Shown piece after piece: positions 12,816 through 58,816 of a stretch of 64,000 bases of DNA. Each line of letters opens with the position of its first letter. Positions within the stretch are counted from its first letter, which is position 1. The DNA lies in IMG/VR virus record IMGVR_UViG_2795386107_000001, positions 1 to 64,000 of that record. One strand, given 5' to 3'. This DNA comes from a virus. Lineage: Duplodnaviria; Caudoviricetes. Below the pieces are notes generated by a model. The model saw only the letters and a program-made list of their open reading frames with translations. It was not told the origin of the DNA and did not search any database. A program made the translations under genes and the position numbers.

Positions 12816-14513
12816 ATGCCTGGTATCACCACGCCCCAGCGCGAGCGCAGATCACGCAAGCCGACCGGTCTCCCGAACCCGCCCATGATCGTGCTGTGCG
12901 GACCCGAGAAGTGCGGCAAGAGCTACGAGGCCGCCCTCGGCACGGCATCCGACCTGGTCGGCATGACGTACTGGATCGAGGTGGGCGGGTCCGAGGGTAC
13001 GGCCGACTACTACGGCCGGATTCCCGGAGCCCGGTACGAGATCGTCGAGCATGAGGGCACCTACCAGGACATCCTCGACGCGGTTCGATGGGTCATCGCT
13101 CAGCCCCGGGTCAACGGCAAGCCCAACATGATCGTGGTGGACAACGGCACGAACATGTGGGACATGCTCAGCGACGAGCAGGCCCTGTTCGCCCGGCGGC
13201 GGGCCGTGCGCAAGGCACAGGACAACCGGCGTCGGGCCCCTTCGCTGGACGACCCGGTCGTCGTCGACGCGGACCTGTGGAACCGGGCCAAGGACCGCTG
13301 GGGCGAGTTCTTGTGGCTGCTCCGTCGGCACTCCGGCCCCGTGGTGATCATCGCCCGTCAGGAGATCGTCACGGCGTTCGAGAACGACAAGCCCACGCGC
13401 AACACCACCCGGAAGATCAAGGCGGAGAAGAACCTCCCGGCCGCGGTCGACGCCATCGTGGAGCTTCACAGCCTGGGCGAGGCGTACCTGACTGGTGTGC
13501 GAACCCTGCACTGGGACGTCAAGCCCGGTGAGACGGTCCCGTTCCCGGACTTCTCTATCGACACCCTCTTGCGTCGGCTCGGGTTCGAGGAGGCAGCCGC
13601 CGTCCGGCAGGTCACCGAGGCCCGGCCCGAGGCGTACCTGCAGGAGCAGGACGACCAGCGCGCCCAGCAGCGGCAGCCCTCCCCGCAGCAGGCACCGGCC
13701 CGGCAGCAATCCGGGCACCCGTCGGGCCTGACGGGGGAGCGGGCCGTGGAGCTGGTCTACAAGGCCCTCAAGGACGAAAACAACCCGGAGGCGTGCCTGC
13801 ACGCCATCCGTGAGGAGTGGGGCATCCGCACCCTTCGGCAGATCCGCACTCGTACGAAGCTGTGGGGCGAGATGAACGCGGACGCTCTGATCACCAAGTC
13901 TCTCGCGTACATCAAGGAGCAGGCGGAGCAGCGCAAGAACGCCGCCGGCGGAGGGAAGCCGGCCGGGCCCAGCACCCCGCCGCCCGGTCAGGGGGAGCAG
14001 GAGCAGGCGCGCGAGCACCACGAGCCCCCGGCCCAGCCGCAGACCCCCAGCGAGCCGGGCACCGAGCAGGCGCCGCCGGACGAGAACGACGCGCCCCCGC
14101 CGCCGGACCCGCAGGCCGAGGAGCCCCCGCCCGCGGAGTCCGCGGAGGACACCAGCGCGGCCGAGGAGCCGCAGGACCTCCCGCCCCAGCGCGCCGCCAA
14201 GGCCGCCCCATCCCGGAAGAAGGACGACCCGAAGCAGATCGCGTACCAGGCTCTGCTCGACGAAGCCGAGGTTCAGGCCCGGGTGAAGTTCACTACCGTG
14301 GGTGAGCATCTGGGGCCGGTCACCGAGGTCGGAGAACCCGGCCTCGGGCAGCTCCGGGACTACATCCAGGCCCACCGCGCCGAGGTCATCACTCTCCTGG
14401 AGGAGGCCGACGAACCCGCGCTCGCCGATCTCTACCGCAGGGCGCCGATGCCGGATCTCGGCATCAAGAAGAAGTTCGCCGACTACTTCGACCGCGCGCC
14501 CTCCCGGCAGTGA
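12816..14513 (+). CDS. AAA_24 / Sak4-like ATPase (putative recombinase) with long Pro/Gln-rich extension
   Basis: Walker A GPEKCGKS, Walker B IVVDN, VIIARQ, AEKNLPAAVD. Confidence 0.8.
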   Translation: MPGITTPQRERRSRKPTGLPNPPMIVLCGPEKCGKSYEAALGTASDLVGMTYWIEVGGSEGTADYYGRIPGARYEIVEHEGTYQDILDAVRWVIAQPRVNGKPNMIVVDNGTNMWDMLSDEQALFARRRAVRKAQDNRRRAPSLDDPVVVDADLWNRAKDRWGEFLWLLRRHSGPVVIIARQEIVTAFENDKPTRNTTRKIKAEKNLPAAVDAIVELHSLGEAYLTGVRTLHWDVKPGETVPFPDFSIDTLLRRLGFEEAAAVRQVTEARPEAYLQEQDDQRAQQRQPSPQQAPARQQSGHPSGLTGERAVELVYKALKDENNPEACLHAIREEWGIRTLRQIRTRTKLWGEMNADALITKSLAYIKEQAEQRKNAAGGGKPAGPSTPPPGQGEQEQAREHHEPPAQPQTPSEPGTEQAPPDENDAPPPPDPQAEEPPPAESAEDTSAAEEPQDLPPQRAAKAAPSRKKDDPKQIAYQALLDEAEVQARVKFTTVGEHLGPVTEVGEPGLGQLRDYIQAHRAEVITLLEEADEPALADLYRRAPMPDLGIKKKFADYFDRAPSRQ

Positions 14514-15247
14514 GGTGACGTGAGGTGACGCGCGCCCGGGACCGCTCGGGCGCGCCCACCGCTCTGCGTGGCCTCCCCGTGCTCGTCACCTCACCTCACC
14601 TCAAGGGGCGCGCCGCGCGGCTCGCACTCGCCTGCAGGCGCGCCCTGGGCCGGTGGCCGGCGCGCCCGTGATCGCCGCCCGAGGCGCACCCGCGCCGCGC
14701 GCCGCGCTCCCTCGACCGCGCGCCTTCCCCACGGTGGCGCGCCCCGGCCTGGCGCGCCACGGGCTGATCTTGGCGCGCCCTCAGCCGCGCGCATGCGCCC
14801 GCGCGGGCCAGGCGCGCCCCGATCTGGCACGCGGCGCTCCCGCCTTGCCGCGCCGCGCGCCGCACCGATCTGAGACGAGCGCGCGCCGCGCCCCGTGCCC
14901 GCGCGGCATCGCGCGCCGCCGGGGGCGCGCCCCACCTTTCGGGAGGCGCGCGCCCTGTGACCTGCGAATTCGCCGACGGCGCGCCCCCTTCCCCGGTGGG
15001 TGCGCGCCTGCCCGCGCGAGTGATCAACAACGGTTGGCGCGGCGCGCGGGCTGGCTGGGCGCGGCCCTCGAGCGCGCGCCCTCGACGTGGAGCGGGGCGC
15101 GGCCGCGCGGTCAGGTTCCGCGCGCTGGTTCCCTCGAGCGCGCGGGCTCGGCGCGCTCGCGCTCGTGGTCGAGGCGCGCCCGGAGACGACGAAGGGCGCG
15201 CCGCTGGGCGCGCCCTCTTCGGTGTTCCGGCCTGTTGCCGCGCGCCT
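14514..15247. repeat. GCGCGC-dense intergenic tract
   Basis: About 28 GCGCGC hexamers counted by eye in ~720 bp between convergent genes. Confidence 0.8.
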
Positions 15248-16072
15248 CTACGGCGCGCGCTTCGTCGTGGCTCGGCGGACCGCGCGCGCGTCCCGGCGCG
15301 CTTCCCGCTTCCCCTCCTGCAACTCTGCACGCACCTGGTGCAGGAGGCTCGACAGCTCCTCGGGGTGCTTGTCGCCGAGGAGGCGAAGCGCACGCAGCCG
15401 TACGTTCGGCTCGCTCGGCATCCGGCCGTAGCGCGCCTCGGCGTACTGGATTGCGTACCGCAGGAAGCGCTGTTCTGCAGCGGCCCGGTCGCGGAGACCA
15501 CGGACACGGGCGTCGTGCGCCTTACGGCTCTCGTCGGGCGCGGCCGCCGGCAGGAACCGGCCCGGCTCCTCCGCCATCAGGCGGCAGACCTCGTCCGCCC
15601 TGGCCGCTACCCTCGGTGACCGAAAGGCGAGGGCCTGCACCCGCCGCGGCACTGGTCCCGTGACCGGCTCGTCGAGGACGAACGCCGTCCACCGCCGGGT
15701 GAACGTCTCGTCGTCGAGCGCTGCAAGGTGCTTGGCCTCCTCGTGCGCCAGGTCCTCGACGACGTCCTGATACGGACGCATGGCCGCCTGCAGGCTGGCA
15801 CGGAACGGTGCGATGCGGGCCGCCTGCTGCTTCCTGCTCTCGCCCTCCTGGAGAGGCAGGAAGGTGCGGGCCCGCTTGATGGCCAGCTCCAGCGCATCAA
15901 GGGTCCGCGGTGCCATCTGGGGCGCGGCCAACGCGGCGGCCTGGACGTCGTGCGGGGCGTCGCGCTTGTCGGGGGCCCCCGTGATGTGGCGGACAACCGC
16001 GTTCATGAACTCGTCGGGCCCCATGCCCGACAGGCGCTTGATCGCCGCCTCGACCTCGTGCGCTTCGGCCAT
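15248..16072 (-). CDS. Hypothetical protein with two tandem ~95-aa repeats
   Basis: GGAGG RBS; VQAAALAAP..FLP..ESRK..AR duplicated as VQALAFRSP..FLP..ESRK..AR. Confidence 0.8.
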   Translation of the reverse strand: MAEAHEVEAAIKRLSGMGPDEFMNAVVRHITGAPDKRDAPHDVQAAALAAPQMAPRTLDALELAIKRARTFLPLQEGESRKQQAARIAPFRASLQAAMRPYQDVVEDLAHEEAKHLAALDDETFTRRWTAFVLDEPVTGPVPRRVQALAFRSPRVAARADEVCRLMAEEPGRFLPAAAPDESRKAHDARVRGLRDRAAAEQRFLRYAIQYAEARYGRMPSEPNVRLRALRLLGDKHPEELSSLLHQVRAELQEGKREARRDARAVRRATTKRAP

Positions 16073-16149
16073 GCGGTCTGTTCCTCCGGTTCGGGTCGGG
16101 CCCGCTGCTCTCGGGCCTAAAGTGCGCGTCGTGCCTGCTGGGGCAGCAA

Positions 16150-16353
16150 GAGGTGGCCGTACCGAGCCTTGCGACAGCGTGTGCCGGGTTCATCGCAGGA
16201 GCAACCACTCCCCGGCCCCGAGTGCTCTGCACGCACCCGGTGGTCTCGATGCACTTGTCAGGCGCGCCCTGGGGAAGGAACACCGCGGTGTCTCTGAACC
16301 CAACGCCTGACGGCAGTCTCAACGCTTTGTCGCGGCAGCGATACAGCCACCTC
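16150..16353 (-). ncRNA. Candidate structured ncRNA (~200 nt)
   Basis: Terminal 15-bp helix GAGGUGGCUGUAUCG/CGGUACGGCCACCUC (G-U pairs only on the minus strand) plus at least five further helices. Confidence 0.6.
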
Positions 16354-16402
16354 GAGTGCTGATGGTACCCGCCGGCGGAGGGCCGGACGGGCGTCGTCGC
16401 TC

Positions 16403-16723
16403 TTATTCGGCCTGCTGGGGCGTCCTCTTGGTCGTCAGGGCCTCGATCATCGGTGCGAGCTTGCTGGGCTTCCACAGAAGGTCGTAGCTGGTCTGGGAGG
16501 CGGCGAGGACGCCGAGGAGGGTGGCGGCCGTCAGCTTTCCGTGCTGGAACTGGTCCAGGCCCCCGTCGGCGCCGACGGCCGCGACACCGGCGATCAGCGC
16601 GGCCACGACCGCTACGACCTTCTTCCACTTCGCCGGCCAGGCCGGGCGCTGCACCACCGCGGTGAGAAGCGGGAGCACAGCGCCCACCTGGGCGCCGGTC
16701 GTCAGGGACTGCAGAGTGCTCAT
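16403..16723 (-). CDS. Holin
   Basis: 106 aa, three hydrophobic segments, GAVLPLLTAVVQRPAW actinophage holin-like pattern. Confidence 0.75.
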   Translation of the reverse strand: MSTLQSLTTGAQVGAVLPLLTAVVQRPAWPAKWKKVVAVVAALIAGVAAVGADGGLDQFQHGKLTAATLLGVLAASQTSYDLLWKPSKLAPMIEALTTKRTPQQAE

Positions 16724-31047: not shown

Positions 31048-31319
31048 CGTGAGCGGGCGGTGAAGCCCTGCCCGCGCAGGCGGTGGGCGTAGTCCGGGGA
31101 CACGTTGATCTCGGCACCGGGCGTGTAGTCGGCGCCGTCGATGCGCAGATGATGCGACAGGGTGACGGTCACCGGTTCCTGGCCTTCACCGAGGGGCGGG
31201 CCGACGACGGTCGGGGCGCGGCGGGCGCGCTCCGGGCGGGCCTCGGCGGTCTCGGTGACGGCCTCGGTGTTCTCCTCCGCCGCGGTGGCGGGCTTCTTGG
31301 TGGTGGTGTTCGTAGCCAT
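31044..31319 (-). CDS. Small hypothetical structural-module protein (likely leaderless)
   Basis: MATNTTTKK; ATG 7 nt after the promoter -10. Confidence 0.65.
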   Translation of the reverse strand: MATNTTTKKPATAAEENTEAVTETAEARPERARRAPTVVGPPLGEGQEPVTVTLSHHLRIDGADYTPGAEINVSPDYAHRLRGQGFTARSR

Positions 31320-41636: not shown

Positions 41637-44600
41637 TCATCGTGTGGCGAGCAGGCCCAGGAGGAACGCCCGAAGGTCGTCGTCCAGGTACCAGTCGCCG
41701 TTAAACATCGACTGAACAGACCGCGCGAGGGTGTCACCAGTGTCCGGTTGCGTCTGCTGCCGCGACAGGATGCGGCTCAGGGCACTGCGCCGCATGCGGC
41801 GGGCGCCCGGTCGGCCGGTGTGGGTCTGGGTGAACCAGAAGATCCGCTGAGCGGCGTCCAAGTCGTCCAGGTGCTGCGCCAGATGCTGTGCGAGGGCGTA
41901 CCCGGCGGTCCCGAGGCCCTCGTCGGCGAGGTCAGCGACCGTGATCCGCTGGCCGTCGGGCTCGTAGCGGCCCGCGTCGCCGTCCACAGCGGTCACACGG
42001 CGCGCGGCCGGGGTGTTGAGCCACGACCGCGGTACGAGGCGCTGCACGCCCCGTACGGCCCGCTCGGCGTCCGGGGTGCTGTCCGGGCCGAACACGATGC
42101 CGGCGTTGCCGCCGGGACCCATGTCGCGGATCTCGGCGAGCGCGGCCGCGACCGCATCGGGTACCGCAGCGGCGTACCGGGAACGCAGGTTCTCCCACTC
42201 CCGTCGCGCGGCCGCCGCTTCCATTCGCGCCGCGGCGATCTCCACCTCGAGGTCCGGGTCGTCCGGGATGGTGGAACTGGTGCGCGCCGCCTGGAGGTTG
42301 ACCAGGCGCCGCTCGGTGGTGGCCACGTAGTCGTCCGCGTGCTGGAGCGTGCCGTGCGGGTCGCTTCCGAAGTCGTCGCCGAGAGAGTCGGCGAGACGGC
42401 GGGTCACCGCCTGGTCGACGTCGCCGCCGGCCGCCCGCAGGGCAGCCATGTGGCGAAGCCCGGTCGGGCCAGGGCCACCGTCCGCGGCCTGGTCCGGGGA
42501 CCAGCGGACACGGTCGCTGCGCCCCGGGAGCCGCCCGGCGGCGAGCTGCGCCCACGTCGTGGGCTGCCACCAGGTGACGCGACGCTGCGCCTGGCCGAAC
42601 CGTCCGGGCTCCGGCAGGAGTCCGGCCCAGTGGGAGACCCGGGCGGCCAGGGACTCGCCATCGGCCTCGGGCAGGTCGAGCGCGCGGTGCAGGCGGGCCA
42701 GACGCCGGGACTCCGGCCAGTCACGGACACGGCGGGCGAGTCGGCCGAGGAACGCGCGGAGTCGAGCTATGCGTTCCCGGGCGTCCCGCCACTTCTCGGC
42801 GATCTTCTCGGCTCCGGCCTTCACCAGGAGCGCGATGCGCTTGGCGAGGCGGACGAGCGCCGCGACGATCCGGGCGAGCAGGCCCGGCTGACGGCCGGCC
42901 TGCGGCGACGCCGCGGCGACGCGCCGCGCAATCTGGCGGGCGGTCGCCTGCCGGGAGCCATCCATGCGCCGGGTGATGGCACGGGCGATCCTCTCGGCGT
43001 CACCCGGGTCCACGCCCGCGGCCTGGAGCTGCTGCAGCACGGCGTTCACCGCGTCGTCGACGTGTCCCGCGACGGTGCGGTTGACGTCCGCGTCGCCGTC
43101 GGTGTCCGGCCCGTTGGGGGTGCCTGCGATCCGGTCGGGGATGAGGCTGAGCAGGTCCCGGGCGCGTGCGGCGAGGTCCTCGTCGCTCTCGTCGGGCAGG
43201 GGCTCGAGGTCGTTGATGGTGCGCAGTGCTGCCCGAACCGTCGCGGTGTGGGAGTCCTGCGCTACCGCTCCGAGTGCCAGCATGGCGGCGGAGCGCTCGG
43301 GACCGTTGACAGCAGCGGCGTCGAGGGCGGCTTGAGCGTCCTCGCGTGCTGCCGTACGGGCTTCTTGCAGCGCCTCGGGGGTGAGGCGCTGGGCAATCTG
43401 CTCGCGCAGAGCGTGAATGTCGCCGGGCGGTTCGGTGCCCGCAATGGCCTCGTCGATGATGCGAACGGCAAGGCTACGGGCGTGGTCGCGGATGATCCGG
43501 TCTGCGTCGGCCTGCGGCGCCGGGTTGGGGTCGCGGTGCGCCCCGGCCGGCGGGAGGGCCGGGGAGTTAGGGCCAGCCGGCACAAGCGCGGTGTTGTCGC
43601 CCTCGGGCTGCGGCTCACCGAGCTGCCACAACGGCATCGCACCGTGGACCACACGCCGGCGCGTACGGCCGTCTTCCCCTTCCAGCAGAAGGGAACGGAC
43701 TCCGCCGGGGCCGTCCTGGACGTCGCGAACGCGGTAGACGGTCACACCGTTGCCGCGGGTGTCCGGGAGGGCGATGGTGTCGTCTTCGGCGACCTGAGAG
43801 GCGTTGGACGGTCGCGGCCGGCCGAGTTCAGCCGGAGGTGTCCGGCCAACGGCACGGTCGAGGTGATCCGCGGCGCGCAGTGCAGCACGGCCCTCGGGCG
43901 TCGACGGGTCTGCCGAGTCGCGGAGCTGCGCGGCGAGTGCGGCCGCCTGCTCCGGGGTGACCGGCAGATCCGTCGTGATGCGCACGGCGCCCTGCTGGGC
44001 GTCCAGGTCATCGTCCGGGCCGTCGGCAAGGTCCCCGATGACGTCCCGGTCGCCCGTGGTCAGTTCAGGGTCGACGGTCGGGCCGGTGACCGGCTCGACT
44101 CGGTGAGGCGGCTCGTGCACCGTGAGGTCGTCCGGCGTGTCCGGGGCGTCCTCCGGGCCGAGGTCGGGGGCGCTGCCGTCGGCACCCTGGGCCCGTGGGA
44201 GGACCGTGGCGGCGTCCACGTCGATCTGGCCGATCTCGCCCGTGGTGGTGTCGGCGTAGTCGATGGTGACCCGGTCGCCGTCCCGCTGGGTGCCGGTGAC
44301 CGCCACGGTGGTGAGGGTGCCGTCGAGGTCCAGGACCACGACGTCGTCCTCCTTGAGGTCCGCGGCCGCCGGGTCGTCGAGGCCGGTCACCGGGGCGGTG
44401 GCCGGGTTGGTGTCGTCCCGGACTTCGCCGGCGACGCGGAGGTCTCCGGCGCTGCGGGTGGTGGTGCCTTCAGCGGTGGTGATGGTGACGCGGTCGCCGT
44501 TGACCTCGTCGACGGGCCCGAGCAGCGCACCGTCGGAGTCGGTCACGATGTGGCCCGGGGTAACGCGCTGCCCGGATGCGGTCCAGCCGTCGGGACGGTC

Positions 44601-47600
44601 GCCGCCGGTCACCGTGAGGGTGGTGGGCGTCAGGCCGTCGGCGGTGTCGTCGTTGTCCCAGCGCACAGACACGGTGGTGCTGGTGGCGCCGGTGACGGTG
44701 CCTTCCCGGCTGCGGAGCCCGTCAACACCGGTGACGGTGCTGCCCGGGAACAGGCCGCGGCCGTTGCGGTCCGTGGGCACCCTGTCGGGCAGGCTGCCGG
44801 TCTGTACGGCGCTCTGGGCGCCGCTGGCCGGCGAGCCGGGCACGGTGTCGTCCGGGGCTTCAGCGCGGGCGGCGGTGGCGTTGAGCGGCGTGAAGACGTG
44901 GCCGCGCTTGCCGGTGCCGTCCGGGTTCTCCGTGACGTACGTACGCCACATGTGCTCGGTGCGGCCGTTGCGGGTGACCTCCACGCGCACCGGGCCCGTG
45001 AAGACGTACCCGGACCGCGTGACGGCGCGCCCGTTCCTCCTCCTGCCGTCCATGCGGACCATGTCGCCGGGCACCAGGTCCGAGACCCGGGCCCAGTTCG
45101 CGGGCTGGCCGCCCACGGGCTCGGGCTCGCCCTGCGGCTCCTCGGCCGGGACGTCGGGCGTCGCAGGCTCGGGCTCCGCGGGGGCCCTGTCCGGGGTCGG
45201 CTCCGGCCGCGCGGCAGGCTCCGGGGTGCTCGTGGGCTCGGCCTGCGGGGTCGTCTCGTTGGTCGAACGGTCGTCGCGGCCGTCGTCTCTGGTGGATGCC
45301 TCGTCGGGCCGCGGGCGGCGGCGTACGACGCCCAGGTTCGGGAACGCCTCGTCGATGTTGGCGTGCTCGCCGTACTGGTTCGTCCAGGAACCCTCTGCCG
45401 GGTAGCGGTGGAGCTGCGGGTTACCGACGGCGGAGAACTCGGAGCGGTAGCGGAACGGCTCTCCCTCGCCGGTCACCGTGGCGTGCACAGTGCCCACGTA
45501 CTCGTCCCGCGGAGAGATGTTCTGGCCGCGGGAGGTGGCCATGGGGAAGCTGATCTCATCGCCGGGGCGGAGGTCCGCCGGGTCAACCGGGATGGAGTAG
45601 CCGGCCTCTTCCTCCCGGGTGTTCCACTCGGCTTCCTGCTGGTTCCACGTGCGGTGGTGCAGGGCCTGCCCACGGTCGCTGTTCCACGGCTCGTAGACGT
45701 TGCCGACGCCGTTCAACCGCTCGGCGGCCTCACCGAAGAGGGTGTTGCCGTCTGCACTACGGAAGGCGCGGGCACGTTCCGCGGCGTCGGGCGCGTCCCA
45801 GGGGAACGGGTTGCCGTCCGCATCCGTGATGCCCTCGAGGACGCGGGCAACCTCGCGGGCACGTTCGGGGTTGTGGAACCCGTCTCGGAACAGGGGCTGC
45901 ATGCTGCCCGGGAGGGCCACGTTGAACCGCTGGCCGCGGCCTACGCCGGCGCGCGCTGCCTCGTTTCCGTAGATGAGCAGACGACCGCCGTCGGAGAGCT
46001 GCGTGCTTTCGGCGTCGGCGATCTCCCCGCGCTCCTCGGGCGAGGGCTCGTCAGCGCGCTGGTCCTCCGGTACCTCGTCGAGGCGCCCATTGCGGATGTG
46101 ATCCCGCAGGGCCTCCTCATCGGTGAAGCGGGGCTTGGCAGGGTCGTACGGCTCGGGCTCCGTGGTGGCGGGCTCCGCTGGGGCCTGGCCGACGTCCGCC
46201 TGCTGGCGCTGCTCCTCTTCGGCCTGTCGGCGCTGTTCCTCCTCGAAGATTTCCCGGTCTCTGCGGTCGTTGTCCCGGTACTGCAGCTTGAACTGGTTGT
46301 AGGTGACGCGGCCGCCGTTGGCGTCGTACCAGTTGATCAGCTCCTCACTGGCGTACTCCCTCCAGCGCCCGAACTTGGCCAGCTCGCCGCCGGAGAACAG
46401 TGAGCGCTCGTCGGGACGGTTGTCGCCGTACTTGTGCTTGCGGTTGAAGAAGTAGCCGTTCGTCTCCTCGATGGCCTGCTGGTAGCGGGCCTCGTCGAAG
46501 TCAGCGAACGCCGCGCGGATGATGTCCTCTTGGGTGCGGCGGGGCCGGGTGATGTCGGCATTTCCGAAGCCCAGGGCCTCGTCCATGGCCTTGCCGCGGC
46601 GCTCGGCCTCCTCGGCGTTCTCCGGCGGGGTGTCCGGAACGGCGTTGCGGATGACCGGGTCCGGGTTGTCGCGCCGGTCCATCTCCGCCGCGACGCGCAT
46701 CATGTCGTCCTGGCTGAGGGGCTGACTCACGAGCGCGTCAAGCGCATCGTCGTCAAGCTCAGTCAGGTCGGCAGGCAGTACGGGGGCGTCGGTGGTCTCC
46801 GCGGCTCGCTGCTGCTCGAAGTCGTCACGGGCAGCGTGAAGCGCGCGCTGCAGGTTGCGGCCCTCGCTGTCGCGCCACTGGCTGACGGTGCTGGGCCCCC
46901 AGGGCTGGTGCCAGTCGAAGGGCTGTCCGTCGCTGCCGGTGATCTCCTCGAAGCGACTGGCAAGGGCGCGGGCCTCCTCGGGGTTGTCGGTGCGCAGGGT
47001 CAGGCCGGGCAGGTTGGTGCCGTTGCGGGCCTGAGCGAACCGCCACAGGGTGGTGCCGTCGTCCTGCGGCTCCGGCCATGTGACCAGCCCACCGCCCGGG
47101 GAGAGAACCATGCCTTCCCGCTCAGCGGCCTGCGCGAGGGCGGCGCGCCGCTCGGGGGTGTCCTCAGCCGCGGTGAGACCTTCGCCGTTCCTCCAGGCGC
47201 GGCGAAGGGAGTCCACGTCACCGTGACGGACCGGAGAGCGGCGGCCGCGGCCGTTGGGGGCGTGCCCCTCGCCGTCGCCACCGGTGCCGGTTGCGGCCGG
47301 AACGTTGAGGTCGGGCAGGTTCAGGTGAGGCAGGCCGGGCCCGCCGAGGCCACCAGGACCGCCGGGGCCACCGTTGCCGCCGTTGCGGCGTCGGCGACGC
47401 CTGCGCCGGTTGCGGTCGTCCTGCTCGTCCTCGTTGTCCTGGTCTTCGGCGTCCGGCTCGTCCTGCTGGTCGTCGGCGTTGTCCGGCGCGTCGGAGCTGT
47501 TGCCGTTCTCCTCATCGTCGGACGGGGCGTCAGGGGTGTCGGCTCCGCCCCCGTCAGGGTCGGCGGCGCCGCCGTCGAGGTCACCGTCACGGCGCTGCCG

Positions 47601-50600
47601 GCGTTCCTCGTCGCCCTGGTCCTGGTCCTCCTCGCTGTCGCTGGTGTTGTCCGGGGCGTTGGCCTCGTCGCGGTTGTTCTCGTCGTCGCGGCGGTCGTTG
47701 CCGCCGTCGTCCTCGCCCCGCGCGATCCGGGCGGCGCGGCGGAACCGCTCGGCCGCGCGCTCCCCATCGGGGCCACCCAGTTCGTACATCTCCGCGAGGG
47801 AGTCGAGCCGGTCGGCGGCGTCGCGCAGCTCGGCGTCGGGGTCGTCGGAGTCCGCCGCGCGCCCCATGGCGTCGGTGACGTCGCGGATCTCTGGAAGATC
47901 GTCCCCGCCCGCTTCGTCGGTGGCCTGGCGCACCAGGCCGGACATGCGGTCGGTGCGGTCCTTGATGTCGCTCCGGCCGCTGACCGGGGTGGCCTCCGGC
48001 TCGTCGACCGCGGGCTCGTCGACGTCGGGAGTACCGTCGGTGCCGGTCGTGCTGGTCTCGTCGACGTTGGGCTCGGAACGCTCGTACCTGTGGTTGTCGG
48101 GGATCTCCTCGTCCGGGTAGCGCAGCCGCACTTGGGCGTCGGAGTTGTAGAAGCGCTCCTCACCGTCGTTGGTGACGATGCGGGTACGGCCGCGGCCGGT
48201 ACGCGCGGGCGGCTCGGCCACGGTGTGCGTACGGCCGTCGGCGTCGGTGTACCGGTCGCCCGGCTCCAGGTCGGCGGCGTTCCGCATCTGCGCCGGACGC
48301 AGGTCGCTGGTGTCGCGGCCTTCGGCATCGGCGAACATGTCCGGCGTGCCGAACTCGTCGGCAGGCCGGACCTCCGGGTTGTCCGGGTCCGCGGTGCTGT
48401 CCGCCTGACGGGTGGTCGGCTCGTCGACGTCGAAGAGGCCGCCGGGCTCCTCCCTGGTCTGCTTGGGCTTGGGCTCCTGCTTCGGGGCGCGGCCGGCGCG
48501 GCGGGCCTCTTCCGCTTCGAGGACCTGCAGGCGGGTGCGGTCAACACCGGACAGTTCCCCGCCGTTGGCCATCTCGCGGCCCATCAGGTCCACGATCTCG
48601 TCGCGAATCTCGCCATCGTCCATCGAGGACGGAGCCTTGGACCCCTCGGGGCGTACGGCGTCGAGCTGGTCGGACACCTCGTCCGGAGTCAGGGTGACGG
48701 TGTCGTTGCCTTCCTCGCCGTCTGCCGCGCTCTGGTCGCCGCCCTGGTCCTGGTCGTCGTTGCTGTCGTTGCTGTCGTTGCTGTCGTTGCTGTCGTCGCC
48801 GAGGTCGCCTGTGCCCGGGGTGTCGGCCGGCGGCTCGTCGTCGCCTCCGTCGCCCGCGCTGCCAGCGTCCGGGGTGTTGGTCTCCTCGGTGTCCGGCGCA
48901 TCGGCGTCCGGGGTGGCGTCGGTGGAGTCGCCGCCGTTGCTCTCCCACTCCTCGCGGCGGCGGCGCAGATCGGCCGCGGCCTCGTCGATGGCCTTGCGGT
49001 AGGCGCGGTATGCGCGCACCTCGGACGGGTCGGACTCCAGCCCTTCGCCGCCTTCCAGCGTCCATGCCCACTCCAGGAGTGCGCGGTGTACCTCGATGGG
49101 GCCCGTGACCTTGAGCGTGCCCTTACGGCCCGGCTTGGCCTCCTTGAGCGCCTTCCGGGTGTCCGGGTCCTCCATGGCCGCGGTCTCGTCGACGTTGAGG
49201 AAGTCGACGAGTGCCGCCGGCATGGTCAGCGTGACGAAGTCCTCGGGCTTGTCCCACGCGTACTTGAGCGGTTCGCCGGGCTCCTCCGCGTCCGCGGTGT
49301 CCTGGCTCTCCGTGTCGTCAGGTCGGATGCTGGCGAGGGTGTCGCTGACCTCGTCCTGGGAGAGGCGAACGGTGTCGTCGTGCTCCTGGTCGCTGTTCTC
49401 GTCGCCGAGGTCGCCGAGGTCGCCGAGGTCGCCGAGGTCGCCGGTGCTCAGGGTGTCGGCCGACTGTCCCTCGTCGCCTGTACCGCTGGCGTTGTCGGGC
49501 CCCGCGGTGTTCGTCTCCTCGGGGCCCGATGCGTCGGCGTCCGGGGTCGTGTCGGTGGAGTTGCCGTCACCGTTGTCGGTCTGCGAGGCGTCGTGCGCCG
49601 GGGGGTTGGGGGTCAGACGCGCGAGGGTGTCGCGCACCTCGTCCTCGGTGAGGTGAACGGTGTCGTCCCTCTCCGGCTCCGGGTTCTGCTCGTCCCAGCG
49701 CTGGAGGTTAGCCACGGCTTCGTCGACCGCGGCCTGCAGCGGTGCCCGCTCCTCGCGCCGCTCCTTGGCCATCGTCTCGCGGTCGTGCTTCTTGTACCGC
49801 TTCTTGTCGAGTTCGTCGGGGTCAATCTCGGGCTTGGCGTCGAGGTCGGTGATGCGGGCGACGACCTCCTCGAGCAGGTTGGCCCGTGCCCGTGCGTGGT
49901 CGATCTGCGGGGTGAGGTCTGCGGCTGCGTGTGCGGACTGGAGCAGGGCTATTTGCTCGTCCAGCTCGGGGACCTTGGCCCGGTCCGACTCCTGCAGGGC
50001 GGGCGCCTTGTCGAGAGCATTGCCAAGGCGGGTGATCATGCCCGACCCGGCGCCCTTCTTCTGGAGGTCTTCGACCGTGCGCTCAAAGTCGGAGTTCCGG
50101 AGGTCCGGGAAGCCGACGTGCGCGACGAGCCTGCCGTCCTCCTTCCGCTCCGTACGGACGCCGAAGTCCAGGCCGCGGAACTGGCCGATGACGTGCCACG
50201 GGCTCATGCCCTCGCGGTTGTGATCCAGGAGCCGGGCGGTCACCTGGCGGTGCAGCGCCTTGCCGGCGTCGGAGCGCTCGCCGTACGGGGAGCCGCCGAT
50301 GGTCATGGTGAAGCGGTCGCCGGCCTCTTGGATGCGGGGCAGAGCCTGCTCGCGGCGCTGGATGCCGTCGCGGGTGGCCTGGGATTCCTGGCGCAGCTCA
50401 TCGAGGGCTTCGGCGCGACGGATACGCTCGGCGGCCTCGTTGTGCTGGTCGATCTCAAGGTCCTTGAGACGGCGGCGGGCCTTCATGAGATGACTCATGT
50501 AGGGGTTGCCGCCCATCTCGGCTTCCATGGTTTCGTAGTCGAACTCGGCGCCGTCGATCTCCTGGACGACGTCGCTGGTGTCGCCCTCCGTCGGCTCCGG

Positions 50601-53600
50601 CCGCTGGATGTCGACCAGGCCCTCGGCCTTGGCGGCGACGAACCCGGCCTTCCAGCCGTCCATGGAGCCCTTGGTCCCGAAAATGTCGATCTCGACCTCG
50701 GGGTTCTGATTGCCGTAGCGCAGGATGCGGCCGTTGCGCTGCTCCATCTGCGCCGCGCCCCAGTCGAGGTCGACGTGCGTGAGGGAGATCATGCGGTCCT
50801 GGGCGTTCATGCCCGTGCCCGCGACGGCGCTGGAACCGATCAGGACCGAGATCTCACCTTCGCGGGCCTTGCGGAACAGCTCCGTCATGTCCTCGGGCTT
50901 GCCGGACTTCTTGGCGTCCTGGACAAAGGCGATCTTGTCGGCGGGGACGCCGCCGGTGACCATGAGCTGCTTGAGTTCGGCGTAGGCGTCGAAGCCGCCC
51001 TTGTTGTCGCTGTCCGGGACGCCTTCGTTCAGGAAGATCATCTGGAGGGCGCCGGGGACGGGGTGGTCCTCGTCGCTGCCGTAAGCGACCTTGTAGACGC
51101 GGTCCTTGGTGGCGTGGTACCGCTCGATGTGCCGGTCCGCGACGGCCTTGAGCTTGTTGCCCGCGGGGGCGTTGCCGTCGACGAGCCGCGGGTCCAGGGC
51201 CACGCTGGTGCCCTCGTTGGACACCGTGAGCATGTTGTCGTCGACCAGGGCGCCCTTGCGGGTGCGGATCTGCTGAGGCTCACCGTTGTGGATGGCGCGG
51301 CCGCGGGCGACGAGCCCCTTGAGACGCTTCTTCTGGTCCGGGGTCGCGTCGACCAGGATCAGGTTGTGGGTGCCGCCCTTGAGCTTCGGCCGGGGAATGC
51401 CGACGTCGTCGGCCCGCTTGGTGTCCGCGACCAGGCCCCACATGGTCTTCATGGCGCGCTTGTTGTGGAACTCGGAGAAGCGCTCCACGACGCGCAGGCC
51501 AGACCCGTCGGGGGCGTTCTCGATACGCAGGGTCTTGCGGCCGAAGGTGTTGGCCCACAGGTCCGGGGCGCCCGCCTTGTAGGCGTCGAGCACCCACGGC
51601 GCCGCGAACTGGAGCATGGTGAACTGCTCGCTGATGCTGTTGGACAGCGGCGTGCCGGTGGCGAGCGTGATGGTGGCGCGGCCGCCGCGGCGGCGGTGCA
51701 GGTCGGTGGTCTTCTGGTGCAGGTCGACGCCGCGGATGGACGCGGGGTCGCCGCCGGCCTCCTTGGAGCGGAAGCCAACGCCCTTGTAGCGGTGAGCCTC
51801 GTCGACGACGAAGTAGTCGAAGCCGAGGTCGTCCCAGTACGTCTCGCCCGGCTTCCGCATGGGCGCGGCGTTCTTGTTGATGTTCCGCTGGACCGTCGCG
51901 ATGCGCTGCTCGATCTTCGCGACGATGAACGGGTGGTTGGGGTTGTCGGCGTCCTCGTACTGGCGGTCAAGCTGCTCGCGCAGCGACTCCAGCTCCCGGA
52001 ACTCGTACTCCTCCTGAGCCTCCGGGCTCATCTTGATGGAGCCGAAGGCCTCTTCGGTGAAGATGACCAGGTCCGGCTTGTTGGCGCGCAGCCACTCCAG
52101 CGTGCTGGAGCGCCGGTCACCGGCCAGGTCTGCCGAGGTGATCAGGTGGATATCGGCGTTCGGGTACAGGTACCGCGCTTCGTCCGCCCACTGCTTCGCC
52201 AGGTGGTTGGGCACCACGGCCATGGGCTTTTCGATCTGCCCGGACGCCTTGAGCGCCTGGGTGCCCATGACGAGCGTTGAGGTCTTGCCGAGGCCCACCT
52301 CGTGGGCGAGGATCACGCCCCGCTCGAACTGCATCCGGGCGGCGCCGGCGAGCTGCCAGGAGTGCGGGGTCCTGTCGGGCGTGAAGCCTTCCAGGGTGGG
52401 CGACATGCCCTCGTACGAACGGACGACGTGCCCGTTCATGATGCGGTTGTAGGACTCAGTGAGGGTCGTCAGTCGCTCGGCGTTCGCCGTGGCGTACTTG
52501 GCGAACTCGGCCCGCATCTGGTCGGCCTTCTGCCGGATCAGACGGGAGGTCGTCTCGTCGACGTCCTTGCGCTTGTCGTCGTGGTAGACGGTCAGCGATC
52601 CGAAGCCGAGGACCGCGCGGGCGATCTCTACGGCGGACTTGCCCTTGGTGCCCTTCTCCGGGTTGGCCGGGACGCCGTACATGACGTTGTTGGCCTCGGG
52701 CACACGGCCGGTGTTGAGAATCCAGCCGTACCGGTCATCGTGCGCAACGCGCAGGGTCCGGTCGCCCAGGTACTCGCGCAGGAAGCCCTGCAGCAGCTCC
52801 GGAGGCGTCCAGTGTGCGCCCATCTCGGGCGTGAACTGGCCGATGGTCCGCTCCGGCGGCTGTACCGCCTCCAGCGCGGCCACGTTGACCGCGTACGCCG
52901 GGTCCTTCTCCGCGGCCTTGCGGGCGGCGTCGAGCTTGTCGCGGACGGCACCGGACAGGTAGGCGCTGGCCAGATCGAGGCGGCCGGTGGCCGGGTTGGT
53001 GAAGACCTCGTTACCGAGGCGCTTCAGCGCCTCCTGCGGGTCGACGTCGAGGAGGCGCGCGACTTCCCCGAGGTCCACGTCGCCGTGCGCGGCGACGACC
53101 GCGGCCAGGGCCGCCTTCGGGTCGTCGGTCGACGTCAACTGACGCCGACGGGCCGCAGCGCGCTCGGTGAAGATGCGGGAGAGGACCGGCTCACCGGTCT
53201 TGGCGTCCCACCGCTCCAGGGCGAGGACAGCCGCGGCGTCCGGGTCGGCTCGGAAGTAACCCCACGCCGTCGGGCGGCCGTTCTTGGTGCGGTGCTGGCC
53301 GGGCTTGGACAGCGGCCCGTACTGCTCGACGTAGGCGGCGTGCAGGTCGCGGAGCTGGGCGCGGAGGGCGTCGGCGCGCTCCTCCTCGTCGTTCTTGCGG
53401 TCCAGCTCGCGCAGTTCGGCGGCGACGTCGCGGAGCTGCATGAGGTCGCGGAGCTGGGCGGTGTTGCCGTCGGCCGGGTCGATGAGGACCGGCTCAGCGC
53501 CGTTGACGTGCTGGTAGAACTGGCCGTCGTCGCCCTCGTAGAGGCGGCCGGTCCAGTCGTTGGCGTGCTTCTCCCGGGCGGTCTGCAGGTGCACCGGGGG

Positions 53601-56600
53601 CCGGTCGTCGCCGTCGGGGTGCGGCTCGTAGCCGCGGCCGTCGGCCTTCGCCTTCTCAGCCATGTCCTCGAGCGCCTTGCGGAGCTGTTCGGCTGCCTTG
53701 GCCGGGTCGCCCTTAACGGTGACCTCCGGCCCGTACGGGCCGGACTGGGTGGTCAGCGTGCCGAGGATGTGCTCGGGGTGCTCGTCGAAGTAGGCGTTGA
53801 TGTGGTGCGGGGTGCCGTTGAGGTCCCGTTCGGGGGCGTCCAGCCATGAGGTGTCGGCCGGCTCGGTGCCGTCCTCACGGCGCCGGAACACGAGCACGTC
53901 GGTGGTGACCCCGGTGCCGGCGTCGTTGAAGACGCCGGAGGGCAGACGGATGGCGCCCACCAGGTCGCCGTACTTGGCCATCTGACGGCGGGCCTTGTCG
54001 CCCTTGGAGTCGAGCGTCTGCCGGGAGGTGATGACGGCCGTGATGCCGCCCGGACGGACGAGGGCGATCTCCTTGGTGACGAACCCGTTGTGCAGGCTCT
54101 CCGCCGGGTACCGCTTGTCATCGAACGGGACGCGGGCGAACGGCACGTTGCCGATCGCCGCGTCAAAGGTCCCCGGCCGGGCGTCGCTCTCCGCGAAGGA
54201 CTCGTTCAGGACGTTGGCGTGCGGGTAGATCGCCTGAGCGATCCGGGCCGTGGTCGGGTCGAGCTCCACACCGGTCAGGCGCGCACCGTCGGGGGCGACG
54301 CCGAAGAACGTGCCCGCGCCGGAACCGGCTTCGAGGACGTCGCCACGGTCGAACCCGAAGGCGCGCAGGCCATCCCACATCGCCTCGGCGATGGGCTGCG
54401 GCGTGTAGTGCATGGACAGCACGCCGCGGGACGCCTGCCGGAACTCAACCGGCGTCAGAACGCGCTGCAGCTCGCTGCGGATGTCGCTGTACTCGGACCA
54501 CCGCTCGTGGTCCTTGGCGAACTTGCCGTACCGAGTGCCGCCCTGCTGGTAGCGCGGTTCCTTCTCGTTCGGCTCGCTGGCGAAGATGATCGGCACCGAG
54601 CCCCACCCGGACCAGCGGGCGAGGATGCGCTTCTCCTCGTCGGTGGCCGGCCGGTTCTCGGCCTCCAGCTTCTTGAGGACCTTGATGGCCTCGACGTTGG
54701 CGGCCGCACGCGCGCGTGCGCCCTTGGGCGCGTCGGCCGGGTCCGGCCGGAACCGCGCTACGCGTCGTACATCGCGTCCCTGATCTCCTGCAGGTGCTGC
54801 TCCATCGGCGTCTGCTCGGGCGCCTTCTCCGCGCCCTCCTCCGGCTCGGGCAGAAGCTCCCTCAGAACCATCGCCGTCGCGTCCGCCCTGATCTGCTTGA
54901 GCCGGCCGACCCTCTCGTCGTAGCCCTCCGGCTCCGGCACCGTCTCCTCCAGCGCCTGCTCCGCGACCAGAATCCGGCTCTCGATCTCCCTGGCCTTCGT
55001 CTCCACGAACGCCTCCGGATCGTCCATCGCCGCCCACTCCTGCGGCAGGTACGTCCGCCAGTGATCCCGGACCGTCGGACTGAACATGTTCATCGTCGTC
55101 GCCTCCCAGCGCTGCACGGAGCGCGGCCTGCTGTGCCTCGATCTCCTCGCGGGAGATGACCTTCTGGTCGTCGTTCCCGCCATTCTTGCGGACTGCCTCA
55201 CGGGCTGACTCAATCGCGTGCAGTGCCACGTTGATGGAATTGAGTCGGGTCTTGGCCTTCGCCCGGTCCGACTTGTCCGCGTCGCGGTCCGCGGCCTGCA
55301 CGGACATGTCCCGCGACAGTTCTTCCGTCACCCGGTGCAGCTCCGCGAGGAGACCCTCGGGAATGACCAAGTTCCGGCCCTTGATGTGGTGGCCCTTCTT
55401 GCTGCTGGGCACCAGCGGGTTCACGCCGTCGTCCCAGCCGTACCGGTCCCGGAACAGGTGGAAGAGGTACTGGCGTTCCTCGGATGCGTTGGAGAGCCGG
55501 TCGCCGAGGCGGGCCGTCTGGTACAGCTCGACGAACATCTTCGGGACGAACACGCGCCGCTCACGGCCCCAGGTGCGCTCACCTCGGGTGTCCGGGTCCT
55601 GGTCGTAGGCGCGGACCAGCGCGGCCAGGGCGGCGGCTCGCGAAGGGTACGCCGTGTTGCCGTGGCCCCAGGAGTTCTTGCCCCAGGTCCAGCCGATCTC
55701 TCGGCGGTCGCGCCCGTAGCCGAGGTTCTGGTTGTAGTCGATGTAGCCGTACCCGGCGCCGCCGTCGATGCTGATTTGCCCGTTGGAGTCGGGGTTGTCG
55801 ACGCGGGCGAGGAGCTGTTCGACCTCGGGGGTGGTGTCCCGGCGGTTCAGTTCGGCCTCGATGGCGGCCATGCGTGCCTCGCGGGCCGCCTTGACGTCGT
55901 CCGACTCGTAGTTCGAGCGGCCGCGGCGCAGCTCGGTGTACTCGTCGAGCAGCTTCTTGGAGTCGACGGCGTCGGGGGTGTCCCGGTCCGTGATGGCCCG
56001 CTTCTCCCGCTCGCGTCGCTCCTGCTTGATGTCCTCCAGGCGGCCCTCGAGGACCCGCTGAGCCTCCGGGGACGCCTTGCGGAAGTCCCGCTTGATGAGT
56101 TCGTTGTATTCCTCGGACAGGGCTTCGTCGTCGAGGTCAGCGACCGGCGGCCGGTCGGCGATCTGCTCGGCGCGGCGCCGCTGCTGCTCACCGACGATCG
56201 CGTCGTGCCGCTTCTGCAGGGCGGCGCGTACGGTCTGCTCGGCCTCGTGGTCGTCGCCGGCGGCCTGGTGCAGGGTGACCCGGTGGGCGACGGCGTCGCG
56301 GGCCTTGGCGAGGTCCTCCTCGGCCATCGTGGTCAGGTCGGTGTTCTCGTCGACCAAGGCCTGGGAGCGGCGGCGGCGCTCGCTGTAGATGGCGCGCTCG
56401 ACGTCGTTCGCGGGCTCGCCCCTGCGGGAGCCGTACGTGCCGCGTTCCTGCTGCGACTCCTTGACGCGGGCCTCGATGTCGGCGTCGCTGAGCTGGGTGG
56501 CGTCGCGGGCCGCGGCTTCGTCCCGCTCCTTCCGCCGGCGCTTCTGCTCCTCGGTGATCAGGTCGATCTCGCTGTCGAGGCGCCGACGGTTGGCTTCGGA

Positions 56601-58778: not shown

Positions 58779-58785
58779 GCCGCGG

Positions 58786-58816
58786 ACCATGTAGAGCGCG
58801 GGTGCTTAGCGTCGCG
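58786..58816 (-). promoter_or_regulatory. Late-type promoter motif before giant gene
   Basis: CGCGACGCTAA-N14-CATGGT-N7-ATG. Confidence 0.7.

Follow-up and report, generated by a model that had tools for sequence, protein, structure and literature searches.

In the phage-plasmids P1 and P7, the immI operon encodes the antisense RNA c4, which acts on icd/ant and is represented in Rfam by the family C4. Bacterial and phage Y RNAs (YrlA type) are partners of Rsr, the Ro ortholog, and some of them are phage encoded. ROOL, GOLLD, and HEARO are large orphan structured RNAs associated with prophages; all are in Rfam and exceed 400 nucleotides (nt). Here we describe a structured RNA from a 64,000-nt stretch of viral DNA (positions 1 to 64,000 of IMG/VR record IMGVR_UViG_2795386107_000001), referred to below as the window. 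The source record is of the provirus class, 72.8 kilobases (kb) long, with a completeness estimate of 56%; the window has a G+C content of 69.5%. The RNA lies on the minus strand between a gene for a small holin-like membrane protein and a gene for a 274-amino-acid (aa) orphan protein. As judged by comparison with its homologs in Streptomyces phage Gilgamesh and related elements, it is a real, strongly conserved, folded RNA of roughly 205 bases.

An initial annotation, made from the letters of the window without database searches, had proposed a multi-stem RNA at 16144-16361 on the minus strand. Folding agrees with that proposal. The minimum free energy (MFE) of this interval is -115.5 kcal/mol (z = -4.74), with none of 200 shuffled sequences as stable; on the plus strand it is -100.4 kcal/mol (z = -2.71), and 3 of 200 shuffles are as stable. 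The conserved core is slightly shorter than the annotated interval:

16150-16353, minus strand: structured RNA core, 204 nt; MFE -108.8 kcal/mol, z = -4.37, none of 200 shuffles as stable

The homologous cores of Gilgamesh (z = -3.40) and of a distant relative, L051 (z = -5.94), give the same picture, each with 0 of 200 shuffles as stable. The fold is a 28-base-pair (bp) rod (P1 to P3) topped by a four-way junction with the arms P4, P5, and P6/P6a.

Homologs came from several sources: 6 loci from a search anchored on the protein, 8 and 19 from two scans of viral contigs with sequence patterns, and 15, many of them on Streptomyces contigs of 121 to 128 kb, from a scan of genome contigs; a scan of metagenome contigs with a 30-nt degenerate pattern gave no matches. 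With eight duplicates, a truncated locus, and the copy in the window itself set aside, there were 33 distinct sequences, and a covariance model was built from the 16 closest of them with a structure specified by the analyst. The model recovers all 33 at 99 to 242 bits; on the reverse strand it scores 20 to 26 bits, at six loci only. The window core is a full-length match to the model at 216.5 bits (cmsearch). In genome searches with the same model, and with the genome at the center of each search counted in, 8 of 151 sampled Streptomyces genomes and 2 of 151 genomes from across the family proved to have the RNA, and no others did; a broader model run over 151 genomes of the class returned the center genome alone. 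These searches added a divergent subgroup (90 to 109 bits) and two remote members (40 to 42 bits). The final alignment holds 39 sequences, 38 of them distinct, drawn from Gilgamesh, IMG/VR contigs, Streptomyces plasmids of about 125 to 130 kb, and prophages. The RNA is single-copy in every genome or record searched, and the length of the family is about 205 to 240 nt.

The initial annotation had named a covariance analysis of homologs as a check on its proposal, and the outcome is favorable. Across the 38 distinct sequences, 95.6% of 2501 pair cells hold standard pairs, and compensatory double changes occur at 43 of 68 pairs (26 of 68 in the 33-sequence alignment). The covariation score is 0.343, versus 0.131 for shuffles, and none of 500 column shuffles reaches the observed pairing, compensatory-pair count, or covariation score. 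When the 3' partners were slid by one to three columns as a control, pairing was 36 to 41% and the score 0.039 to 0.053. An alignment independent of the model (MAFFT plus RNAalifold) recovers P1, P3, P5, and P6; single-sequence MFE folds recover P1 in 38 of the 38 sequences, P5 in 37, P2 in 28, P4b/P4c in 27, and P6 in 26. G-U and U-G pairs fill 184 of the 2501 cells, and pairing is 95.6% on this strand versus 89.8% on the complement, as expected from the annotation's remark that the G-U pairs form on the transcribed strand; both flanking genes also lie on this strand. P5 and P6 hardly vary in sequence, with flanking proteins that diverge to 54 to 60% identity. In the alignment, then, purifying selection on the RNA is evident.

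The helices and the loop that matters most for what follows are these:

16322-16353, minus strand: 5' strand of the rod (P1 16339-16353, P2a 16334-16336, P2b 16328-16333, P3 16322-16325)
16150-16180, minus strand: 3' strand of the rod (P3 16177-16180, P2b 16171-16176, P2a 16166-16168, P1 16150-16164)
16248-16318, minus strand: long variable arm P4 (P4a to P4d), with compensatory changes at 21 of 22 pairs
16274-16280, minus strand: single-stranded, CU-rich segment UUCCUUC, the 3' side of the internal loop in P4 and a candidate anti-Shine-Dalgarno seed
16218-16240, minus strand: hairpin P5, CCGGGUGC-GUGCAGA-GCACUCGG, present in 37 of 38 MFE folds
16183-16216, minus strand: P6 (GCCGG/CCGGC), which encloses the hairpin P6a (GGAGY-loop-GCUCC) and has a 9-nt bulge on its 3' side, UGCGAUGAA

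In the rod, compensatory changes affect 6 of 15 pairs in P1, 5 of 6 in P2b, and 3 of 4 in P3. The comparison of homologs thus bears out the 15-bp closing helix of the initial annotation and its continuation through GCC/GGC, GCGACA/UGUCGC, and GCGU/ACGC; the helix GUCAGGCG/CGCCUGAC with its apical hairpin and the helix GCCGG/CCGGC were also drawn correctly. A further helix, AGUGC/GCACU, was not: GCACU belongs to the P5 hairpin in all relatives, and AGUGC is a window-specific sequence in the 3' strand of P4. At the base of P4, GA is opposed to GA. The apex of this arm is expanded in relatives, and Gilgamesh-type members carry an extra apical hairpin of 20 to 45 nt; the loop motif G(G)UGnnCCUYY is retained in most members, and the opposing 5' side of the loop varies. 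P5 has compensatory changes at 5 of 8 pairs and covaries in the divergent subgroup (CUGCGCGC/GCGCCCAG). Its fourth pair is mostly non-Watson-Crick or wobble (G-U in 32 sequences, G-C in 1, and unpaired in 5; n = 38). P6 is invariant in all 38 sequences and hence uninformative on pairing; P6a shows compensatory changes at 3 of 5 pairs and has a variable loop.

Several additional elements were considered and rejected. Extension of P1 by CAGCA/UGCUG, the outer ends drawn in the initial annotation, is not conserved as pairing in relatives. Base pairing between the P6 bulge and the invariant GGGUAnnAUC fails on the bulge, which varies (GAUG, GAGG, GAAG, GACG) with CAUC fixed. A pseudoknot between the P6 bulge and the 3' strand of P4a and a pairing of the P6a loop with J4/5 are both inconsistent between subgroups. 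Close relatives differ by 1- and 2-nt insertions or deletions, so that no conserved open reading frame (ORF) is possible within the RNA, and there is no gene signal in the third-position G+C (GC3).

The RNA resembles no family that we searched for. Rfam 15 gave no matches in the 64-kb window at gathering score; at E <= 10, the region 15900-16600 yielded four rows of 11.6 to 18.2 bits, against gathering scores of 38 to 70, all on the other strand, and Rfam searches of nine related loci found nothing at the RNA. The Rfam/Infernal search, another check named in the initial annotation, therefore returned no match to a described family. The only find of ARAGORN is a tRNA-Arg at 31200-31290, in keeping with the annotation's statement that the RNA is not a tRNA. 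Nothing favors its suggestion of a 6S-like decoy: the rod and four-way junction have no central bubble, and the 6S models do not match. A search for Ro/TROVE (PF05731) was negative in three records (G000, the complete relative G004, and Gilgamesh), with control genomes of Deinococcus and Bacteroides scoring. Type III toxin-antitoxin (ToxI-like) RNAs consist of tandem direct repeats upstream of an endoribonuclease toxin; Tandem Repeats Finder reports no array inside 16150-16353, and the 274-aa protein has no PADLOC match and is predicted to be all-helical. A full-text literature search returned nothing on the RNA or on Gilgamesh. A catalog of viral candidate RNAs (PMC10690425) lists motifs of 29 to 151 nt, and a fragment of the RNA may be present in its supplementary tables; PMC13659240 and PMC3765725 have no bearing on it. 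Judged by these searches, the RNA belongs to a family not yet described. The central claim of the initial annotation, a candidate novel multi-stem noncoding RNA, thus survives on the lack of an Rfam match, the strong covariation, and the 38 distinct homologs; one of its helices was wrong, its remark on a promoter motif is not supported, and it overlooked a conserved TAnnAT hexamer (see below).

The RNA is closely tied to the gene that follows it:

15248-16072, minus strand: downstream gene, coding for a 274-aa all-helical, Arg-rich orphan protein (P0001); GC3 0.88

A relative of P0001 lies downstream of the RNA in 38 of 38 loci, even at 33 to 46% protein identity. Some of these relatives are partial: those in L054 and L055 align over about 100 residues only (39% and 34% identity), and in L030 and L033 only the N-terminal part is found. 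A profile search recovered 42 relatives, including a shorter family of 160 to 230 aa that matches the C-terminal half; all are annotated as hypothetical, mostly from Streptomyces, on contigs of 129 to 135 kb. A profile of the shorter relatives matches 11 of 301 sampled Streptomyces genomes, with the RNA directly upstream in 11 of 11, and none of 400 other genomes of the class. Across the sequences surveyed, these counts show a strict linkage of the RNA to the downstream 274-aa gene.

The protein itself has no match in Pfam, PHROG, NCBIfam, PADLOC, PDB sequences, or the ESM Atlas. All 74 close relatives lack a name, and ten of the profile-search relatives gave nothing when scanned against Pfam and PHROGs. 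A confident AlphaFold2 model (predicted local distance difference test score, 86.4) consists of 13 helices, the C-terminal one Arg-rich, and has no convincing fold relative (Foldseek E >= 0.079; VIA Z <= 6.1, with generic helical matches). Both halves of the 274-aa protein, the N-terminal and the C-terminal, are matched by the profile of the shorter relatives, and a single helical domain may thus have been partly duplicated within it.

Directly after the 274-aa gene comes a stretch of about 730 nt (14514-15247) with 79 to 85% G+C, no codon periodicity, an MFE z of -3.68, and many long inverted repeats. Of the 20 exact GGCGCGCC palindromes in the window, 13 lie within it, in an array at 14549-15214. 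Such an array follows the homologous gene in 14 of 14 related loci counted, with 10 to 22 copies per locus, most of them within about 0.7 to 0.9 kb; in Gilgamesh, the region is an unannotated gap of 742 nt. Replication-type genes lie on the far side of the array. From its sequence, the array looks like a protein-binding DNA array (of the origin, iteron, or centromere type) of a phage-plasmid. Since the 274-aa protein adjoins it, the protein may bind DNA and serve in maintaining the element. A 23-nt inverted repeat, 91% complementary (14511-14533 and 14581-14603), is built from repeated GAGGTGA/TCACCTC units, three of which directly follow one another on the minus strand at 14586-14603. This repeat sits at the convergent junction after the AAA-ATPase gene, and P1 of the RNA also starts with GAGGTG.

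The elements that carry the RNA are Gilgamesh-like Streptomyces phage-plasmids of about 125 to 130 kb. Gilgamesh (129 kb, filed under two accessions) is the only cultured relative found in the phage collection by blastn; it is about 72% identical over the region, and the matching gap, at genes 75/76, is unannotated. Among its genes are ones for ParA- and ParB-like proteins and for a sigma factor, and one that resembles queuine tRNA-ribosyltransferase. The RNA is also carried by three complete Streptomyces plasmids of 125 to 130 kb; the one inspected is circular, a 129.7-kb plasmid of a complete genome. Some copies of the RNA are chromosomal. In many Streptomyces assemblies, relatives of the element make up entire contigs or complete plasmids of 121 to 132 kb (they include contigs L026-L042 and the PLSDB entries CP108533.1, NZ_CP107934.1, and CP109288.1), which points to a widespread phage-plasmid lineage. 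A remote homolog of the RNA in L055 (42 bits) lies about 1 kb from the host gene for RNase P RNA (Rfam RNaseP_bact_a, 284 bits), an arrangement noted at L055 2692-3090, minus strand, and this prophage may be integrated next to rnpB.

In the window, the minus-strand genes from about 40 kb down to 15.2 kb form a phage structural module, as judged by third-position G+C. They include a 1343-aa ORF, a putative tape-measure gene by its placement, and a 1317-aa tail/fiber protein with PHROG tail matches, followed by small membrane proteins. The RNA sits in a 330-nt intergenic gap (16073-16402) in which the codon-position signal vanishes. The gene before it is the following:

16403-16723, minus strand: upstream gene, coding for a 106-aa small membrane protein, holin-like; GC3 0.91

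This 106-aa protein has a weak PHROG holin match (phrog_1299, E = 0.0081) and no match in Pfam, NCBIfam, or PADLOC. A holin-like homolog precedes the RNA in 36 of 38 loci; the other two are L036, where the locus begins at the RNA, and L055, which has no significant match. Elsewhere in the window, a single ORF of 5717 aa (41637-58790, minus strand) has a gene-like third-position G+C of 0.90 and is unusually large for a phage. The tRNA-Arg at 31200-31290 (anticodon CCG) is on the plus strand, opposite to the surrounding structural genes.

Around the RNA, the gap contains a series of signals:

16368-16391, minus strand: hairpin just after the stop codon of the holin-like gene (CCCGUCCGGC / GCCGGCGGG), read from the sequence
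16362-16367, minus strand: TACCAT, a -10-like hexamer (TAnnAT) within the invariant GGGTAnnATC, present in 38 of 38 sequences
16136-16148, minus strand: small hairpin directly after P1 (UGCUG-CCC-CAGCA), found by inspection
16099-16117, minus strand: leader hairpin GGCCCG-AGAGCAG-CGGGCC, about 12 to 30 nt upstream of the Shine-Dalgarno sequence
16082-16087, minus strand: Shine-Dalgarno sequence GGAGGA of the downstream gene, whose start codon is at 16070-16072

The hexamer occurs as TACCAT, TAACAT, TATCAT, TACAAT, or TATGAT, with variation at only its two middle positions among the 38 sequences, and in all of them it ends 7 to 8 nt before the first base of P1. The actinobacterial -10 consensus is TAnnnT. 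Because the outer T-A and A-T are fixed, the middle positions are free, and the distance to P1 is constant, we read the hexamer as a putative -10 element; it suggests that the RNA has its own promoter. The hairpin before it abuts the hexamer with its 3' arm. That arm, (C)GGCGGG, is kept, and by inspection the 5' arm covaries in L016, L051, and L055; the hairpin is possibly a terminator or insulator of the late operon. After P1, a short hairpin of differing sequence is seen by inspection in most members. The linker from P1 to the leader hairpin is variable in length and sequence, with 18 nt absent from L005 and L017. The leader hairpin itself retains the loop AGAGCA in most members and has compensatory stem variants (GGUCC/GGACC in L028 and L031), and the word AGAGCA(C) is also present in P5.

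Two promoter proposals did not hold. The initial annotation had compared CGCGACAAAG, found within the RNA, to a late-promoter motif; the window has 11 copies of it with up to one mismatch versus 6.3 +/- 2.3 expected, a count reached by 5 of 100 shuffles, and within the RNA this sequence is the 5' strand of P2b, covarying with its partner. GGGTAnCAT as a repeated phage promoter was also rejected, with one exact copy in the window and 16 one-mismatch matches expected by chance.

The RNA sequence is present in RNA libraries. In a search of public runs, four runs from two studies were examined as assembled contigs with a depth of 2 to 5. The X8 contig is 184 nt long (16156-16339) and has no differences from the window, with the flanking genes uncovered; the X1 contig (16184-16373) likewise has no differences. 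X2 consists of three pieces within 16161-16335, identical to the RNA, with ends at 16161/16162 and at 16335. The cover of X8 and X2 is confined to the RNA core, and in contigs of such low depth a lack of cover is no sign of a discrete RNA.

Our preferred reading, which we hold tentatively, is that a discrete small RNA works with or on the downstream 274-aa gene in a c4-like manner. In a first step, a discrete RNA gene would be transcribed from the sigma-70-type -10 hexamer, whose position 7 to 8 nt before P1 would put the transcript start at the foot of the rod. Pairing of the 5' and 3' ends would then provide a nuclease-resistant closing helix, and, at the short hairpins that follow P1, only a fraction of the transcription would pass on into the protein gene. 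In a second and least certain step, the RNA would act on or with the downstream gene, as P1 c4 does on icd/ant. The conserved single-stranded CU-rich loop of P4 could pair with the Shine-Dalgarno sequence (GGAGGA) in front of the 274-aa gene and so might set the level of the 274-aa protein in the lysogen, and the AGAGCA word, which P5 has in common with the leader hairpin, could provide another contact or a protein site present in both. Of the cells compared, 91% show complementarity between the CU loop and the downstream GGAGG, and 98% between the P5 loop and the loop of the leader hairpin.

A number of observations weigh against this preferred reading. The promoter has no conserved -35 element, and a consensus scan requiring a -35 finds none; there is also no U-tract terminator after P1. 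Low-depth library contigs cannot show starts, ends, or strand and may reflect DNA carry-over, and the X1 contig crosses the putative -10 hexamer; if it comes from RNA, it represents read-through of the late operon and not the proposed promoter. The match of the CU loop to the Shine-Dalgarno sequence is little informative in G+C-rich sequence, as any CU-rich loop fits any GGAGG, and the invariance of the Shine-Dalgarno sequence means that this complementarity comes without covariation. The scan that yielded this match gave 25 windows with at least 90% pairing, mostly in GC-rich helices. For contact through the P5 loop, the subgroup of the window requires a bulge, and in L011 the contact fails. 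The pair counts come from an alignment that was itself fitted to the model, and the pairing of 95.6% is somewhat inflated by this. Lastly, a 205-nt RNA with a four-way junction and near-invariant P5 and P6 far exceeds what an antisense seed needs, and the main function may therefore be another, for example protein or ligand binding.

The main rival, possible though doubtful, is that the RNA acts in cis, as a 5' leader of the 274-aa gene, with the entire 330-nt gap forming one untranslated leader that starts at P1. Such a leader might be riboswitch-like or protein-responsive, reacting to a ligand or to its own product, or might merely stabilize the 5' end of the mRNA. The RNA is immediately upstream of the gene in the same orientation and is never found without it. 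As in aptamers, the nucleotides of its junction and loops show strong conservation, and the second conserved AGAGCA-loop hairpin, between the RNA and the Shine-Dalgarno sequence, repeats a word of P5; a single RNA-binding protein, perhaps the Arg-rich product, could bind both sites for autoregulation. The closing rod speaks against a leader: P1 to P3 form a very stable 28-bp stem (core, -108.8 kcal/mol), whereas a riboswitch has to open its P1. Between P1 and the leader hairpin, the linker is variable (the 18 nt missing from L005 and L017 fall in it), no conserved alternative pairing between the linker and the RNA was found, and there is no Rfam riboswitch match. One soil RNA library assembled only the RNA core, but the absence of cover elsewhere is not evidence.

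The RNA and the 274-aa protein could instead form a ribonucleoprotein in which the RNA serves as scaffold, guide, or antidote and no gene regulation is involved; we regard this as unlikely. The co-occurrence of the two is strict over deep divergence (11 of 11 genomes and 38 of 38 loci), the protein is all-helical with an Arg-rich C-terminal helix, and the near-invariant P5 and P6 resemble protein-recognition surfaces. However, the protein has no recognizable RNA-binding fold or family, and its position beside the GGCGCGCC array means that it may bind DNA instead. The leader and protein-partner readings were both raised in the initial annotation; the strict co-occurrence supports them jointly and does not separate one from the other.

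Less probable still is a processing or stabilizing module of the late polycistronic transcript, with the rod as an RNase III-type clamp and UAnnAUC as an endonuclease site. A 28-bp imperfect duplex would suit the first role, the A/U-containing single strand flanked by two GC-rich hairpins could plausibly be cut by RNase E/J, and the X1 contig spans the hexamer. Yet such a stem needs no conserved four-way junction, no near-invariant P5 and P6, and no fixed noncanonical pair; there is a single element per phage; and T-A-n-n-A-T with only the middle free is the pattern of a -10 hexamer. A DNA-level element, whether a miniature inverted-repeat transposable element or a protein-binding palindrome, is scarcely credible despite the 15-bp terminal inverted repeats and the length of about 200 bp, given one copy per genome or record at a fixed syntenic site even at 33 to 46% flanking-protein identity, no target-site duplication visible at the ends, 43 compensatory pairs in internal helices that would be meaningless in DNA, and 184 G-U cells that would be A-C mismatches on the other strand. 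Additional copies elsewhere, vacant sites in close relatives, or a transposase end that matches would each favor such an element, and none of these was seen.

Going beyond these readings, one could speculate, with no great expectation of being right, that the RNA and the 274-aa protein make up a new RNA-protein control module for phage-plasmid maintenance (replication, partition, or immunity). The role of the RNA would then exceed antisense pairing: the near-invariant face of P5 and P6 would bind the protein or a small ligand and thereby govern a factor acting on the adjacent conserved array of 10 to 18 GGCGCGCC palindromes. Large structured RNAs that have been solved (riboswitches, ribozymes, Y RNAs, pRNA, and bridge and omega RNAs) have each revealed a mechanism. 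Covariation-supported RNAs of this size are rare, and the present one combines 43 covarying pairs, a clear anatomy, and a single partner gene. Its host Gilgamesh is a cultured phage on Streptomyces lividans, which makes the RNA experimentally tractable. The RNA also marks a widespread, little-studied group of phage-plasmids of about 125 to 130 kb, and the model allows such elements to be annotated.

Among the known systems, the stems cut by RNase III (T7 R-sites) share with this RNA a long imperfect duplex in an intergenic position of a phage operon; the RNA differs in its constrained four-way junction, its single copy per genome, and the -10-like hexamer in front. The phi29 pRNA (Rfam Phage_pRNA) is also a phage-encoded, noncoding, multi-helix RNA of similar size with paired ends, but here there is no Rfam match, the gene follows lysis-type genes and is not located by packaging genes, and nothing links the RNA to packaging. 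ROOL, GOLLD, and HEARO resemble it as ornate, conserved, prophage-borne RNAs found by covariation; at about 205 nt versus more than 400, and without a sequence or structure match to them, the present RNA is restricted to one Streptomyces element lineage and tied to one protein gene. With the Y RNAs it has in common a long closing stem of the 5' and 3' ends, a multi-branched head, and a size of about 100 to 200 nt, whereas the three records searched contain no TROVE/Ro gene, no Rfam Y RNA model matches, and ARAGORN reports no tRNA-like module. The c4 RNA of P1 and P7 is about 77 nt long and has two short recognition loops, unlike the rod and four-way junction of the 205-nt RNA described here; no Rfam model matches, C4 included, the complementarity to the downstream gene is without covariation, and the downstream protein is not recognizably Icd- or Ant-like (no Pfam or PHROG match). 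As with c4, however, the host is a phage-plasmid, the structured RNA, putatively promoter-proximal, is encoded first and in the same orientation as the protein gene, and loops of the RNA match the ribosome-binding region of that gene, which would share its transcript; for the CU loop the match holds in 91% of cells.

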